64,000 nt of DNA from Candidatus Woesearchaeota archaeon (GTDB lineage Archaea; Nanobdellota; Nanobdellia; Pacearchaeales; GW2011-AR1), in NCBI GenBank assembly GCA_964482075.1, contig CAYZVU010000001.1, positions 343 through 64,342 on the forward strand. The letters are read 5' to 3'. Of this stretch, positions 49,476-54,507 are shown piece after piece. The notes below the pieces were generated by a model. It was not told the origin of the DNA. It saw only the letters and a list, made by a program, of their open reading frames with translations, and did no database searches. Position 1 is the first letter of the stretch. Each line of letters begins with the position of its first letter. Made by a program: the position numbers and the translations under genes.

Positions 49476-49605
49476 TTTTTATTTTTTCTTCATTAGTTCT
49501 CTTTGATTTAATAACATTAAAATTACTGCAGGAATTATAAAAAGCCAATCAATTGTGAATGCTAAAGCTAAACAAACTAATGCAATTATGGAGAATAAAA
49601 CTACT

Positions 49606-50385
49606 TTAGGATTTTTCATTGGGTTTTCCTATTTTTTCTAGTTTATTTTGAACGTGATTAAATAATGTTGAGGAAAGTAATGGTTGGTGATTCCCGGGAT
49701 GAATTTGCCCGTCAAATTTGATTTTCCCTAAATAAGTCTGGTTTTTTAGAATCTTTTTCACACCATTTACTGAAAAGCCAAACTTTTTTGAAAGCTGAGT
49801 TAAACTAATTGTTGAATTCAGAAATTCTTGAAAAATTTCCTGAACTTGGTAAGAATGCTCGGCAGGGATAAGCTTTTTCTCTTCTAATCTATACCCAAAT
49901 GGAGCCCTAGTAACTACATCTCCATCTCTTGCCTTTTTATCCATTGCAAACTTTGTTCGTTCCCCAGTCACATTTCTCTCAAATTCTGCGAAAGCAGAAA
50001 TTATATGAAACATTAATTTTCCTGAGGCAGATGTAGTTTCAATTTTATCTTGCAATGAAATAAAATCTATATCCCATTCTTTTAGCTTTTCAATTGTTTC
50101 AATCAAATCTTTTAGTGATCTTGAGAACCTATCCAATTTGTAAATAAAGATTGCTTGGAATTTTCTGAGTTCTGCATCTTCTAAAAGTTGCGTCATTTCA
50201 GGTCTTCCTTTGATATCTTTTGCAGATTTTCCCTCCTCTCTGTAAATTTTTGAAATTTCGTATCCTAAAGCCTTTGCATAATTTTGTAGGGCCTCTTCTT
50301 GGGCTGCGAGAGAAATCCCATGCCTTACTTGCTCTTCTGTTGAAACACGGATATATATTACTGCTTTTGGTTTTTGGTCTATCAT
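49606..50385 (-). CDS. Serine recombinase (resolvase/invertase family)
   Basis: Catalytic N-terminus AVIYIRVSTEEQVRHGISL...Q (Ser nucleophile), a resolvase core (DRFSRS, KLMFHIISAFAEFER), and a C-terminal HTH-like tail. Confidence 0.85.
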   Translation of the reverse strand: MIDQKPKAVIYIRVSTEEQVRHGISLAAQEEALQNYAKALGYEISKIYREEGKSAKDIKGRPEMTQLLEDAELRKFQAIFIYKLDRFSRSLKDLIETIEKLKEWDIDFISLQDKIETTSASGKLMFHIISAFAEFERNVTGERTKFAMDKKARDGDVVTRAPFGYRLEEKKLIPAEHSYQVQEIFQEFLNSTISLTQLSKKFGFSVNGVKKILKNQTYLGKIKFDGQIHPGNHQPLLSSTLFNHVQNKLEKIGKPNEKS

Positions 50386-50510
50386 TTTCCTCTTTTATAT
50401 AGAAAGGCGTGCACTAAGGTTTATAAAACTATAGTTCACGTTCTCTTAGGATGCCCTTGGTGCACACATTATACACTGAGAATAGAGGTTTTTGGGATTT
50501 AGAGAAAAAT

Positions 50511-50807
50511 TTATCCTAAAGCTTCTATTTCTTGTTCTAAAAGTTGGGCATAATAACCCAAGGCAGTATAAATATTTCCTTCTCCCGGCTCAAAAGTCCT
50601 CTTTAATCTAAATTGTAACTGAGTTAAATAATTGCTATGTGAAACCATTGAATCTGGCCCAGTAATTTTTATTAAAGGTAGAAGCATATTTAATGGACTT
50701 TTTTGAGCTAATTTTTTCTGAAGATCCGAAATCTTCCCCCTTGCTAAGTCAAATGCCACCTCTACATTTGTCTCTGCAAGATTTCCCCATTCTATTGGAT
50801 AACTCAT
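50511..50807 (-). CDS. Hypothetical protein (98 aa)
   Basis: Clean ORF next to the recombinase; no motif recognised. Confidence 0.35.
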   Translation of the reverse strand: MSYPIEWGNLAETNVEVAFDLARGKISDLQKKLAQKSPLNMLLPLIKITGPDSMVSHSNYLTQLQFRLKRTFEPGEGNIYTALGYYAQLLEQEIEALG

Positions 50808-50854
50808 GAAAAAAGATAATTTTATTCTTTTTAAAAATATATATCTTAAACCAG

Positions 50855-50922
50855 GTAAATTTTTTGGTAATTTTATTGTGGCCTGCCGGCCTTGTGCACT
50901 TAGGTTGCCTTAGTTATTATAT
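50855..50922. repeat. 68-bp direct repeat copy A with GC-rich near-palindrome GGCCTGCCGGCC
   Basis: gtaaattttttggtaattttattgtggcctgccggccttgtgcacttaggttgccttagttatta recurs at 51447-51514 with 2 mismatches. Confidence 0.8.
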
Positions 50923-50967
50923 TTTAGAAGATATATAAAAATATAAAAGAATCTAATTTAACTTTGT

Positions 50968-51450
50968 ATGATTAATCCAGAAATTATATCTCTTGGAAAT
51001 GCTGGAAAAATAATAAGAATAATCCCAAATAAAGAAAGTGTTTTTCAAGAAAAGGCTTGGAGAGTATTTATGGGATTAAACCCCGAATGGGTCTATAGAG
51101 CTATGAAAATTGATCAGGGAAAAGTGAAGGATGAATTTAAAAGAAGGGGTTATGAATGGAGAAATTCTGCTAATTATTCTGAGGATTATTGTGCAGCAGA
51201 GGAAGGGGAAAGTGAAGAGTTTTTTACTTTTAGAAAAAATCATGGGGGATTGGCAAAAGCAATCCTACAAATTTGCATGGACCCTGAAGAAGATTTAGAC
51301 TTTTTATTTAAAATATTAAAATACCCAATATATGCTAGAGTTATCTATCTTGATTATAATGAAACTAATATGGACACCCCAAAACAACAAATGGAATTAA
51401 TCTCACTCTGTAAAGAGTATATTGAAATAATTGATGTCTTGATGGAGTAA
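50968..51450 (+). CDS. Hypothetical protein (160 aa) flanked by 68-bp direct repeats
   Basis: Clean ORF bounded exactly by the two repeat copies; no motif recognised. Confidence 0.4.
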   Translation: MINPEIISLGNAGKIIRIIPNKESVFQEKAWRVFMGLNPEWVYRAMKIDQGKVKDEFKRRGYEWRNSANYSEDYCAAEEGESEEFFTFRKNHGGLAKAILQICMDPEEDLDFLFKILKYPIYARVIYLDYNETNMDTPKQQMELISLCKEYIEIIDVLME

Positions 51451-51514
51451 ATTTTTTGGTAATTTTATTGTGGCCTGCAGGCCTTGTGCACTTAGGTTGC
51501 CTTAGTTATTAGAT
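51447..51514. repeat. 68-bp direct repeat copy B with perfect palindrome GGCCTGCAGGCC
   Basis: See copy A. In this copy the 12-bp core is a perfect palindrome. Confidence 0.8.
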
Positions 51515-52631: not shown

Positions 52632-53288
52632 TTAGAGGTCTCTTAATTGAAGTATTGTGTTTAAGCTTGCGATTTTTTTAAGGTTATTCGATATTTTTAA
52701 TTGAATATTTTTATTATTTAATTTGACTTTCTCGACGGGAATTTTCTTTTTAATTAATCTACTAATATAATCTCTAATAGAGCTTTCAGTTAAATTTAAT
52801 CTCTCTGATAAGGTTTTATAGTCGGAATACCCATGCTCTTCTTCTAGTTGATATAATGTGGAAAATACTAAAAGTTCTTGATCTGTTAATCTCTTAAATT
52901 TCAAGCGAATTTCTTTTTTAAGAACATCTAGCGAGTTTAAAGTTTGTATTGCATTTTCAAAAGAATTTTCATCAGATTTAAGGGCAAAATCTGTCTGTCT
53001 GTCTGTCTGTCTGTCTGTCTGTCTGTCTGTCTGAACCCCTTCATTTCTTATGGAAACCCCCATATTTTGGGACTTTAAGCCCCTAAGAGAGGTGTTATCT
53101 GTCGAAGTCGGAGCTATATTTGTCTGCTCCATAGTATTATCTGTCGAAAGAATCTTTTCTTGTTTTTTGGCTAAATTAACTAATAATTCATTATTCTGAT
53201 CTAAATTTTCCCTAATTAAATCGATTTCTTTTTTTAAAAAATTCATGTCTTGCTTCACTTTTTGAAAAGCATTTATTATATCATCCAT
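52632..53288 (-). CDS. Coiled-coil + wHTH DNA-binding protein, paralog, containing (CTGT)10 microsatellite
   Basis: Same architecture as the 51811 gene: N-terminal coiled coil, a QTDRQTDRQTDRQTD linker encoded by the 52981-53023 tetranucleotide repeat, and a C-terminal MarR/TrmB-like wHTH (LTDQELLVFSTLYQLEEEHGYSDYKTLSERLNLTESSIRDYISRLIKKK). Confidence 0.5.
   Translation of the reverse strand: MDDIINAFQKVKQDMNFLKKEIDLIRENLDQNNELLVNLAKKQEKILSTDNTMEQTNIAPTSTDNTSLRGLKSQNMGVSIRNEGVQTDRQTDRQTDRQTDFALKSDENSFENAIQTLNSLDVLKKEIRLKFKRLTDQELLVFSTLYQLEEEHGYSDYKTLSERLNLTESSIRDYISRLIKKKIPVEKVKLNNKNIQLKISNNLKKIASLNTILQLRDL
52981..53023. repeat. (CTGT)~10.75 tetranucleotide microsatellite inside a coding region
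   Basis: ctgtctgtct... uninterrupted for 43 nt; it is in frame with the minus-strand ORF as (QTDR)n. Confidence 0.9.
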
Positions 53289-53346
53289 TTATTAAATAAA
53301 ATTTAGAAGTATAAAAACTTTCAGATGATAAAACATATCTTTTTGG

Positions 53347-53613
53347 TTATTGTCTATTCTTATATGCAGTATAAGTCTCTTCACTTAATGCCCATCTAGC
53401 CCTTCGAAGATATTGTTTTCCTTTGGGATTTTTATTAATTTTTTTAATTAATTTTTTTGAATTTAAATCAATTAATAATTTTTTAATAAATTCTTCATCT
53501 CTAGCTAACTCTCTTGCTATATGTGATGTAAAAATTGGTTTAGGGGAGATTAAGAATAATGTGGCTAAAATTTGTTCAGATATCTTATCTTTTTTTTCTT
53601 TAGAAATTTTCAT
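53347..53613 (-). CDS. Small wHTH transcriptional regulator-like protein (88 aa)
   Basis: TSHIARELARDEEFIKKLLIDLNSKKLIKKI resembles a MarR/PadR-type recognition helix plus wing. Confidence 0.4.
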   Translation of the reverse strand: MKISKEKKDKISEQILATLFLISPKPIFTSHIARELARDEEFIKKLLIDLNSKKLIKKINKNPKGKQYLRRARWALSEETYTAYKNRQ

Positions 53614-53649
53614 GAATTAAAGAAGTTATTCGGTTTTAAAAAAGTATGT

Positions 53650-54066
53650 CTATTCTTTTTTTTCTGGTGCCTTAAGTGTGGGAAAAGGCACATGATATGG
53701 AAGGTTCATTTCATCTTCTAATTGAAGCGCCTTTATATTGGCTTTTCTAATAATTAAATTAAATAAAGTAATTTTAAAATCATCTTCTAATTCTTTATCC
53801 TTCCACTGTTTTAATACCTCTCTTGATACCTTTGCCTCAACTTCGATCGCTATTGCTCCTGAAAGCTCTATTTTTGCTATTTCTGGTGAATATTCAATAG
53901 TATATTTGAATTTTATTTCTAATAATTCCCCTTTTGGTTTGAAAAACCCAGAATTTGGAGAATTTATTTCAGATATGTCTATACTTGTGTTAATTTTTGT
54001 TTCTCTTGTCGCAGGAGAAAATTTTTCTACACTAATTTTATTAAAACTAAATCCTATTAATTTCAT
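53650..54066 (-). CDS. Hypothetical protein (138 aa)
   Basis: Clean ORF; no motif recognised. Confidence 0.4.
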   Translation of the reverse strand: MKLIGFSFNKISVEKFSPATRETKINTSIDISEINSPNSGFFKPKGELLEIKFKYTIEYSPEIAKIELSGAIAIEVEAKVSREVLKQWKDKELEDDFKITLFNLIIRKANIKALQLEDEMNLPYHVPFPTLKAPEKKE

Positions 54067-54159
54067 TTTAATATTAAAAAAAACTTGTTTTTAAAGATTT
54101 ATATTAATTATTAAATAGGTTTTAAAGAAGAATATTTAAATTAAGTAGAAAGAATGGCT

Positions 54160-54417
54160 TTAAACAAGATCTTCTTCAGAGATAACTAAAAAGTCGCTTA
54201 TAGAGATTATTGCACTATGTGGGACTAATAATTCATTAGTTGATATTTTCTCTAAATTAAGGTTTTTTGTATAAGGTGTCGCATCTTTTAATAAAACGTT
54301 TATTAATTCCCCTGAATTTGTTTCAAATGTTATGTCTTTAACAAACCCCAGTCTCTTACCTTCCTTTGTTACAACCATCTTTCCTATTAAACTATTAAAA
54401 GAATTTTTATCTTGCAT
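54160..54417 (-). CDS. PRC-barrel domain protein
   Basis: SLIGKMVVTKEGKRLGFVKDITFETNSGELINVLLKD shows the PRC-barrel pattern and parallels the 36912 ORF. Confidence 0.4.
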   Translation of the reverse strand: MQDKNSFNSLIGKMVVTKEGKRLGFVKDITFETNSGELINVLLKDATPYTKNLNLEKISTNELLVPHSAIISISDFLVISEEDLV

Positions 54418-54507
54418 GATAAATCCAGAAGAAAATAATTTATAAACTTTTCTGTGAATTTATATAGAGTTAAAAGACTCTATGATTGATGATTTTTGGA
54501 CTTTTTG

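Follow-up and report, generated by a model that had tools for sequence, protein, structure and literature searches.

Staphylococcal cassette chromosome (SCC) elements integrate at one conserved chromosomal site near oriC, where tandem composite arrays are separated by repeated copies of the site. The dif consensus sites of bacteria and archaea carry an ATAA/TTAT arm motif, and in Bacillus a parS site lies inside spo0J/parB. The dif site has been described as 28 bp long, arms of 11 bp enclosing a spacer of 6 bp; the predicted dif of Sulfolobales is close to xerA, one genome having two copies at the locus, and in Thermococcales dif lies 120-142 degrees from oriC, in putative termination regions (PMC2958812). 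Integrons have been described in archaea as well (Ghaly et al. 2022, PMC9668308). Here, we analysed a stretch of 64,000 nucleotides from a Candidatus Woesearchaeota archaeon (assembly GCA_964482075.1, contig CAYZVU010000001.1, positions 343 to 64,342; hereafter the window), focusing on the block that separates the L18e-L13-S9 ribosomal operon (47032-48210) from the replication origin. A preliminary description, made from these letters alone, had read the block as an integrated plasmid or small provirus. We show instead that it is a conserved chromosomal oriC neighbourhood, common to hundreds of Pacearchaeota-like DPANN archaea. Our best explanation, to which we give a probability of about 55%, is that this neighbourhood consists of two parts: a core gene cluster (51.5-54.4 kb) and a resident site-specific recombination module (49.5-51.5 kb), in which a short serine recombinase would act on a recombinase-proximal site (type I) and on directly repeated cassette sites (type C). 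The literature searched contains no description of this locus and no report linking Pacearchaeota with serine recombinases; this neighbourhood, ordinary-looking as it is, was previously undescribed.

The module seems to work most like a miniature integron or like a platform for integrative mobile elements exploiting Xer (IMEX), and its position and the names of the enzymes nearest to its own recall SCC and the Ccr recombinases. It nevertheless lacks defining features of each of these systems: IntI and, as it seems, attC sites are absent, the sites do not have dif architecture, and no element carries a full large serine recombinase (LSR). As in integrons, a resident recombinase stands at one end, followed by a distinct recombinase-proximal site (I) and then by directly oriented cassette sites (C); the cassettes are short, largely ORFan and mostly contain a single open reading frame (ORF), and the sites are more similar within genomes. 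Unlike in integrons, the enzyme is a serine recombinase (or XerA) and not the IntI tyrosine recombinase, the sites share an 11-bp duplex core and in this appear unlike attC sites, hairpins defined by their structure, and the locus, fixed beside oriC, holds only 0-2 cassettes, which mostly face the recombinase and apparently have their own promoters. CcrB and CcrC are the best named matches of the enzyme, with scores far below the cut-offs, but Ccr proteins are ~450-560 aa long, contain a zinc ribbon and a coiled coil and are carried on the element, whereas the enzyme described here has 259 aa and is resident. The locus shares with Xer/dif and its IMEX (CTX-phi, TLC, the gonococcal genetic island GGI) a conserved host-encoded recombinase, a conserved chromosomal site and integrase-less elements between duplicated site copies, and XerA itself is present in 21 of 46 loci. 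It differs from them by the sequence and build of its site, by its location at the origin and not the terminus, and by the serine enzyme that serves as substitute in other genomes. Like the Tn3/gamma-delta resolvases with res, the recombinase has a composite asymmetric site over its own promoter, which predicts autoregulation, and directly repeated sites; unlike them, its C-terminal domain is the LSR 'Recombinase' domain and not a small helix-turn-helix (HTH), no transposase accompanies it and no three-subsite structure is demonstrated. Finally, as with ParB-parS and iteron-Rep pairs, repeated motifs resembling binding sites lie beside and inside the gene of an origin DNA-binding protein, but no ParB, ribbon-helix-helix or Rep fold was found, the ORF218 protein of the core cluster being MarR-like (predicted), and no partner ATPase is seen in the cluster.

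Four observations carry our explanation. Firstly, the gene order is conserved. Using the 64-kb window and 10-kb flanks, we compared 160 related loci, 80 of them from genomes (fetched from a scan of one genome per species) and 80 from metagenomes (retrieved with the serine recombinase as query). The order PolD–Orc1/Cdc6–oriC–PRC barrel–ORF138–ORF88–ORF218–ORF199–variable DNA–serine recombinase–…–S9/L13/L18e was found in essentially all of them, where they were long enough to display it. The species scan recovered relatives of the ORF218 family in 460 species-level genomes, and more than 1795 homologues of ORF218 (51-62% identity over the full length) were found, many of them named Pacearchaeota proteins. 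Searching the genome loci by tblastn with the proteins of the window detected ORF218 in 80/80, ORF88 in 78/80, ORF199 in 77/80, ORF138 in 74/80, the PRC-barrel protein in 72/80 and the serine recombinase in 49/80. Save for a few isolated strand exceptions, the origin-cluster genes keep the same order and orientation across the genome loci, with Orc1 and PolD on one side and S9-L13-L18e on the other where the contig reaches; the metagenome loci have the same layout wherever their flanks extend. A gene order conserved in this way is what the preliminary description had given as grounds for dropping its own reading. Four independent contigs with ORF218 homologues likewise display DP2, DP1, Orc1, the origin, PRC, ORF137, ORF88-99, ORF218-225 and a divergent ORF200-216. 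The GC content of the block (0.28-0.32) is that of its flanks, and a comparison of its outer borders revealed no att-like direct repeat but a single shared word, an AT-rich inverted 16-mer that was reached by 2 of 100 shuffled sequences. There is no tRNA in the window, and Rfam gave only sub-threshold noise at 50.3-51.9 kb, no family matching the sites described below.

The enzyme of the module is encoded at 49606-50385 on the minus strand. The preliminary description had recognised it as a serine recombinase, and the 259-aa protein indeed matches two Pfam domains, Resolvase with E 3.4e-42 and Recombinase (PF07508) with E 2.3e-7 (31.5 bits vs a cut-off of 21.1), that is, the catalytic and the 'Recombinase' domain of a short LSR-type enzyme. 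Its N-terminal domain aligns best to the catalytic domain of the TP901-1 integrase (E 4e-26; YIRVSTEEQ vs YTRVSTTNQ), the catalytic serine motif being present in this alignment, and for residues 162-255 the match is the A118 integrase, over its recombinase domain. Neither Pfam nor a structure-profile search gave any match to a zinc ribbon or a coiled coil in this protein, which ends at residue 259, right after the recombinase domain. Gamma-delta and Gin-type chains could be aligned with it over the catalytic domain only, and it has no short C-terminal HTH of the HTH_7 type. Because the protein ends where LSRs go on with a zinc ribbon and a coiled coil, it does not qualify as a full LSR, nor is it a small resolvase of the classical type. 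Its best NCBIfam matches (CcrB, CcrC and XisF) all fall below the cut-offs, the Ccr models scoring 122-127 bits against cut-offs of 900, and a search of 2.9 million viral contigs returned no close relative. The 49 genome loci with a homologue have either the full-length protein (64-83% identity; ~42% in six loci) or its C-terminal domain only, always between ORF199 and S9 and on the same strand. Pairwise identities of the recombinase correlate very weakly with those of its neighbours (rho 0.04-0.11, vs 0.14-0.40 among core genes), a comparison that is not decisive between a vertical and a horizontal history of the gene. The small membrane protein ORF46 (49479-49619, minus strand) overlaps the 3' end of the recombinase gene; tblastn detected it in 15/80 genome loci, and in several mapped loci it directly adjoins the recombinase or XerA operon. 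A Logan contig (L001, SRR5581654) corresponds to positions 49530-50884 of the window; one of its ends lies 30 nt into the 71-nt repeat described below, as the repeat predicts, while the other, at 49530, falls inside ORF46 with no evident repeat and could reflect strain variation there.

Secondly, the sites are conserved in sequence and in polarity. Motifs containing GTGCAC had been noticed upstream of the recombinase gene and likened to recombinase half-sites. Both GTGCACTAAGG and the inverted CCTTGGTGCAC are present and appear to behave as half-sites, which the recombinase would bind and recombine. They belong to the type I site (50383-50475, plus strand), directly upstream of the recombinase start codon, which comprises in the window the half-site GTGCACTAAGG (50409-50419), the TATA-like TTTATAAAA, then ATAGTTCACG and the inverted half-site CCTTGGTGCAC (50455-50465). 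Two type C sites follow on the plus strand, at 50855-50925 (core GTGCACTTAGG at 50894-50904) and at 51447-51517 (core at 51486-51496); the latter is the anchor site ahead of the iterons that is kept across the lineage. These are the direct repeats that had been reported as a 68-bp pair bracketing a cassette. The bracketing of ORF160 stands, whereas the repeats are 71 nt long, of which 68 positions (96%) are identical.

We searched the window for the common half-site GTGCACTWAGG, allowing at most one mismatch, and obtained five matches in 64 kb for 0.67 expected. Four are in the block, and the fifth (7845), inside a ribosomal-protein gene, looks like chance. Over 1.2 Mb of oriented loci we counted 72 exact copies of the core, always on one strand, for 0.38 expected; these copies sit between the recombinase and ORF199 in the loci that include the recombinase, and just upstream of ORF199 elsewhere. 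A C site consists of a T-rich stretch, TT and then GTGCACTWAGG TTA GCTWAGTG, an imperfect 23-bp palindrome within ~60-75 nt overall. An I site consists of GTGCACTWAGG, TTTAAAAA, ATGGTTCACG and TTTAGGGTGCCCTAAGTGCA and lies at the promoter of an operon whose last gene encodes the recombinase. In most loci an anchor C core, exact or near-exact and constant in orientation, precedes the ORF199 homologue by a few hundred nt (~200-350 nt in the majority), and one or two extra C copies may lie ahead of it. A profile built from 11 loci recovers the I site of the window at 75 bits. Profile searches of both sets of loci gave 0-3 sites per locus, all in the same orientation apart from two weak matches that echo palindromic sites on the reverse strand. 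The C sites of one genome resemble each other slightly more than they resemble those of other genomes (p = 0.027 and 0.0013), the pair in the window being the extreme case. An upstream GC-rich stem was considered as a universal part of the C site and discarded, since it accompanies only 19 of 142 sites (5 in shuffled controls).

Thirdly, the DNA between the sites is unrelated from one relative to the next. In the window the array reads I - ORF98 - C - ORF160 - C. ORF98 (50511-50807, minus strand) matches nothing in Pfam or PHROG; in L134, L155 and L156 distant homologues of it (34-38% identity) fill the corresponding slot, the first one beyond the I site, while L154 holds no more than a fragment at the end of a contig. 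ORF160 (50968-51450, plus strand) is an ORFan, also with no Pfam or PHROG match: its sole match among 5.8 billion proteins is itself, and none was found in the 160 related loci. The closest relative found, L098/L099, has a recombinase that is 92% identical in protein and 83% in DNA sequence. The alignment with it comprises the S9 operon, ORF46 (83% identical) with the recombinase gene, the I site at 84% identity and the C sites at 84-86% over 58-74 nt. At the I site, the DNA on the cassette (right-hand) side is already unrelated, and the first C site of the window, which matches the C sites of L099, has unrelated DNA on both sides; the alignment resumes at the second C site and runs into ORF199 (76%). 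ORF98 and ORF160 are thus replaced in L099 by unrelated segments of 620 nt and 330 nt.

This pattern extends to the other loci. All loci together contain 111 inter-site segments, with a median spacing between cores of 493 nt; in ten cases the spacing is 100-200 nt and resembles an empty I-C or C-C junction. The ORFs of these segments fall into 81 families, of which 64 are singletons, and recurrent families change slot, the DUF5654 membrane protein being encountered in the I-C, first C-C and second C-C slots. The products that can be named (DUF5654, an RNase T-like exonuclease, DUF218) are mutually unrelated, and an RRM protein is also found in the variable region. The largest ORF is on the minus strand, facing the recombinase, in 74 of 90 segments. 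Site-specific cassette exchange would produce such a pattern. The DNA that is exchangeable would amount to ~1.1 kb only (50.49-51.45 kb), to which 48.2-49.5 kb should perhaps be added. This second segment (variable insert, 48213-49475, no strand assigned) lies between S9 and the recombinase operon and encodes ORF137 (minus strand) and TM2, DUF2752 and DUF4389 proteins (Pfam). Its ~1.25 kb are missing in L098/L099, where S9 abuts ORF46 and the recombinase, and its occurrence is patchy in other loci. In addition, marine relatives that are 99.9% identical (L008, L009 and L010) differ from each other by insertions of 1.8-4.7 kb. These are flanked by a separate 22-nt direct repeat, AAGTAAACAATCAAGTGATTTT (palindromic, AATCA-AG-TGATT), located ~1.1 kb beyond the C site (L008 10761-10809 and 15525-15573; L009 10756-10806 and 12521-12571), and forming a second site for integration within this variable region.

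Fourthly, two recombinases of different families exclude each other at the locus. We considered the 46 loci that span the whole interval from S9 to ORF199. Twenty-five contain a full-length serine recombinase and no tyrosine recombinase (in L025 the enzyme was recognised by tblastn only), 21 contain a tyrosine recombinase and no full-length serine recombinase, and none contains both (Fisher p = 1.4e-13). The tyrosine enzyme is an archaeal XerA (NCBIfam recomb_XerA_Arch, 228.6 bits vs a cut-off of 220; Pyrococcus XerA 4a8e, E 9e-41); L005/L012, L013, L017, L032, L052, L058, L066 and L087 are among the loci that bear it. C sites are equally frequent with either enzyme, at 1.38 per locus. The I site, on the other hand, is confined to loci with a full-length serine recombinase (18/25 vs 0/21 XerA loci). 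A paralogue with a zinc-ribbon-like N-terminus and the recombinase domain only is present in 20/21 XerA loci and in 12/24 serine-recombinase loci. The swap between XerA and the serine enzyme suggests a shared function at shared sites, possibly the resolution of chromosome dimers.

The second part of the neighbourhood, the core cluster, lies between the anchor C site and oriC and is found lineage-wide. The 85-aa PRC-barrel protein (54160-54417, minus strand; Pfam PRC, E 1.9e-8; 60-85% identity in relatives) is encoded by the first gene adjoining oriC. Next come ORF138 (53650-54066, minus strand), a conserved protein of unassigned function that matches no family, and ORF88 (53347-53613, minus strand), a small putative winged-HTH protein. 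This last assignment had been made in the preliminary description, and matches to winged-HTH families (HTH_69, PH0730-like) do exist, although they are weak (E ~1.5e-3). ORF218 (52632-53288, minus strand) has a long N-terminal helix, a disordered linker of TDRQT repeats and a C-terminal winged helix predicted to be MarR-like; its AlphaFold2 model (pLDDT 73.7) finds its best structural matches among MarR-family regulators. ORF199 (51812-52411, plus strand; 57-82% identity in relatives) similarly comprises a helix, a linker of (V/A)QT(G/A) repeats and an HTH. Both had been described as coiled-coil and winged-HTH paralogues. The N-terminal helix and C-terminal HTH are found in the two proteins, but their paralogy has no sequence support (BLASTP E 0.82) and only the architecture is shared. 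Profile and fold searches against Pfam, PHROGs, NCBIfam and the PDB returned no Rep family for these proteins, only generic HTH or MarR-like matches. On the other side of oriC lie Orc1/Cdc6 (55053-56264) and the PolD subunits DP1 and DP2. The oriC context itself (54440-55050, no strand assigned) is AT-rich (GC 0.177) and contains origin recognition box (ORB)-like sequences, TTCCAnnGGAAA, at 54525 (minus strand), 54873 and 54971.

The array that had been noticed ahead of ORF199 is real, iteron-like and conserved in relatives. It covers 51540-51800 (no strand assigned), including the ORF199 promoter region, and consists of a 28-nt direct repeat present twice (51541 and 51649), the palindrome AAACAGCTGTTT at 51593 and 51686, with a third copy within ORF199 at 52089 (four matches with at most one mismatch vs 0.30 expected), and TTATCGACGR at 51567, 51740 and 51980. 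In the upstream regions of relatives, the half-site STGTTT reaches 31.8 per kb vs 2.9 per kb in the background, AAACAGC is present in 58 of 59 ORF199 upstream regions, and a second motif, TCGWCGA, recurs near the ORF199 promoter. Similar repeats are found within the genes. The linker DNA of ORF199 (52085-52136) repeats the iteron motif CAAACAGSTGTT, with a codon usage far from background. Among the homologues in L011-L090, the QT(A/G)V repeats of ORF199 are encoded almost only by CAA-ACA-G(C/G)T-GT(T/C), ACT being used 0 times out of 195 (background 36%), GCA 0 out of 110 (47%) and GGA 0 out of 85 (51%). The linker of ORF218 is encoded by (TCTG)11 at 52990-53033, and in the homologues DRQT is always GAC-AGA-CAG-ACA (GAC 131/131 vs 19% in the background) within an (ACAG)4-10 tract. 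Phase variation at (TCTG)n was discarded, the length of the tract being identical within every group of near-identical strains. The simplest reading is that the iterons and the repeats in the linkers are protein-binding sites kept, near the origin, within the genes of the proteins that would bind them. Two further observations concern this region. In L065 and L071 an ORB-like TTTTTCCAYTGGAAA and then GGGGCTTCGACAC occur inside the iteron region upstream of the ORF199 homologue, while ORB-like boxes of the window are found only at the canonical origin. Several species have repeated copies of AAAGTGAGRG, both in the 3' end of ORF199 and in its convergent spacer to ORF218 (window 52380-52576, L004, L005 and L008); in the window alone, six matches for 2.9 expected are not significant.

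Taken together, we propose the following for the two parts. ORF199 and ORF218 would be chromosomal DNA-binding proteins that most likely bind the iterons (STGTTT / AAACAGSTGTTT) ahead of ORF199, the same motif and the (ACAG)n tract being presumably bound also within their own linker-coding regions; their likely role would be autoregulation, the organisation of origin-proximal DNA, or both. In the module, the short LSR-derived recombinase would be expressed from a promoter embedded in the composite I site, probably in an autoregulatory manner, as with res of the Tn3 type. Beyond the I site come 1-3 C sites, repeated in direct orientation and with the same 11-bp half-site, and the small promoter-carrying cassettes between them would be swapped over evolutionary time by recombination at the sites.

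Several points weigh against the recombination module. The arrays are tiny (0-2 cassettes), and some segments contain 2-4 ORFs or none. Strain pairs that are at least 99% identical always carry the same cassettes, so that there is no cassette polymorphism at the strain level; the single segment found to be replaced, in L107 vs L159, belongs to the gene that separates the recombinase from the I site. No recombination product was seen, and look-ups of exact proteins revealed no empty-site or alternative-junction variant of the window; they returned only the same contigs, ending inside the 71-nt repeat as assembly would predict. Sites are only weakly homogenised within genomes. The palindrome has a single base at its centre, with arms of 10-11 nt flanking TTA, and departs in this from the 2-bp crossover geometry that is classical for serine recombinases. 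As the C sites are equally frequent under XerA, the serine enzyme is not required for their maintenance. As most cassette genes face the recombinase, each with a C site just upstream, the T-rich flank may serve as a promoter and the core as an operator. Lastly, every dataset consists of metagenome assemblies.

The main rival takes up this last possibility: the GTGCACTWAGG palindromes would be operators or promoter elements of a small local regulon, bound by the recombinase-domain paralogue, by ORF88 or by the recombinase acting as repressor only, and the variable genes would result from ordinary turnover in a plastic region. We regard this as rather improbable, though it accounts for several facts. 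In the examples measured, C sites lie ~35-100 nt upstream of minus-strand cassette genes, the strand bias given above is that expected of such targets, and in the I site a half-site separates the TATA-like box from the start of the recombinase gene. A C site and the DUF5654 gene together make up a recurrent unit (the family occurs in 34 genome loci, with 22 site-flanked copies in different slots), the palindrome stands between divergent genes in related head-tail viruses in which no integrase was seen, and the constancy of cassettes among strains fits as well. Operators would not, however, be expected to persist while their target genes are wholly replaced between relatives whose flanking genes are 83% identical in nucleotides, nor does a regulon account for the singleton families, for the empty I-C junctions or for two near-identical 71-nt copies bracketing an ORFan. 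The sites, moreover, always accompany a site-specific recombinase, serine or tyrosine, and in every stretch examined the motif is limited to this single locus. Judged from these comparisons, a recombination platform appears as the best, albeit unproven, explanation, and an operator role as its main rival. The two are not mutually exclusive: resolvases of the Tn3 type both recombine and repress at res.

We consider it less probable still that the C site is the dimer-resolution site of the lineage, a functional dif near oriC, with XerA as the ancestral enzyme, displaced by the serine recombinase in about half of the loci, and with IMEX-like cassettes. The presence of a canonical archaeal XerA in 21 loci and of the serine recombinase in 25, with no overlap, the equal frequency of C sites under either enzyme and the recombinase-domain-only paralogue beside XerA in 20/21 loci are consistent with it, as is the proximity of the predicted dif to xerA in Sulfolobales (PMC2958812). 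The C site, TGCACTWAGG-TTA-CCTWAGTGCA, on the other hand, does not have the known build of dif, with its 11-bp arms and 6-bp spacer, and the dif of Thermococcales is far from the origin (PMC2958812). The C site also lacks the ATAA/TTAT arm motif.

The idea of an integrated plasmid or small provirus, with winged-HTH proteins acting on the iterons as Rep proteins and a recombinase serving for integration, is hardly tenable: although the recombinase, repeats, iterons and HTH genes adjoin one another and the variable region is rich in ORFans, we rejected it because this same order, with the recombinase, the iterons and the three HTH genes included, is conserved as chromosome of the lineage (the arrangement recurs in essentially every related locus and in 460 species-level genomes, the HTH genes being 51-82% identical), because there are neither border repeats nor a GC shift and no matches to Rep, plasmid or virus families, the viral contigs holding no close relative of the recombinase, and, as for an iteron-controlled replicon, the iterons precede a non-Rep HTH gene while a canonical oriC (ORB boxes, Orc1) lies 3 kb away.

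A wider reading of the recombination module may be put forward tentatively, and we hold it to be doubtful as a whole. The truncated LSR-type recombinase and XerA, the latter with the recombinase-domain-only protein as helper, would be interchangeable on the same GTGCACTWAGG-core sites, at an oriC-side platform that would capture promoter-carrying ORFan cassettes and possibly integrase-less viruses. Such a platform would be an analogue of integrons or IMEX that is indifferent to the serine or tyrosine type of its enzyme, perhaps also a dimer-resolution site of the lineage, and the neighbouring DNA-binding proteins may hold their own sites in their linkers, in the manner of parS in parB. The genomes of DPANN archaea are tiny, and knowledge of their gene uptake, chromosome organisation and segregation is scant. 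If the sites recombine, the locus would represent a cassette-capture system based on a serine recombinase and fixed at the origin across a whole order, together with a natural replacement between serine and tyrosine recombinases on the same sites, which bears on the evolution of recombinase specificity modules; the 259-aa enzyme and its 11-bp half-site would also be of interest as a compact tool for genome engineering. If the sites are only operators, the attractive plasmid call is still corrected and a lineage-wide origin gene cluster defined. In either case, the motifs within the linkers of origin-proximal proteins offer a testable handle on origin organisation in archaea that cannot yet be cultured alone.

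Two minor observations complete this analysis. All seven of the IMG/VR contigs L091-L097 have a near-perfect to perfect version of the site, the perfect one being in L093 (TTGTGCACTAAGGTTACCTTAGTGCAA). Related head-tail viruses account for several of them: the genes of L093 include those for an HK97-type major head protein, a scaffold protein, a large terminase and an HNH protein, and terminase-like ORFs are present in four others. In five of the seven contigs the site lies ~200-850 nt upstream of the terminase gene or operon. A provirus link was discarded for these contigs, in which no integrase and no genes in common with the chromosomal loci were seen, and no matching provirus was found in the 160 loci. 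Finally, a bacterial-type DNA polymerase III alpha subunit is encoded directly downstream of the PolD large subunit, from 61880 to 64000 on the plus strand and beyond the end of the window (Pfam PHP 8e-55, DNA_pol3_alpha 3.6e-79, finger 6e-55). The gene does not follow DP2 in L004 and L008, and it is also present on a JGI contig of the same organism.

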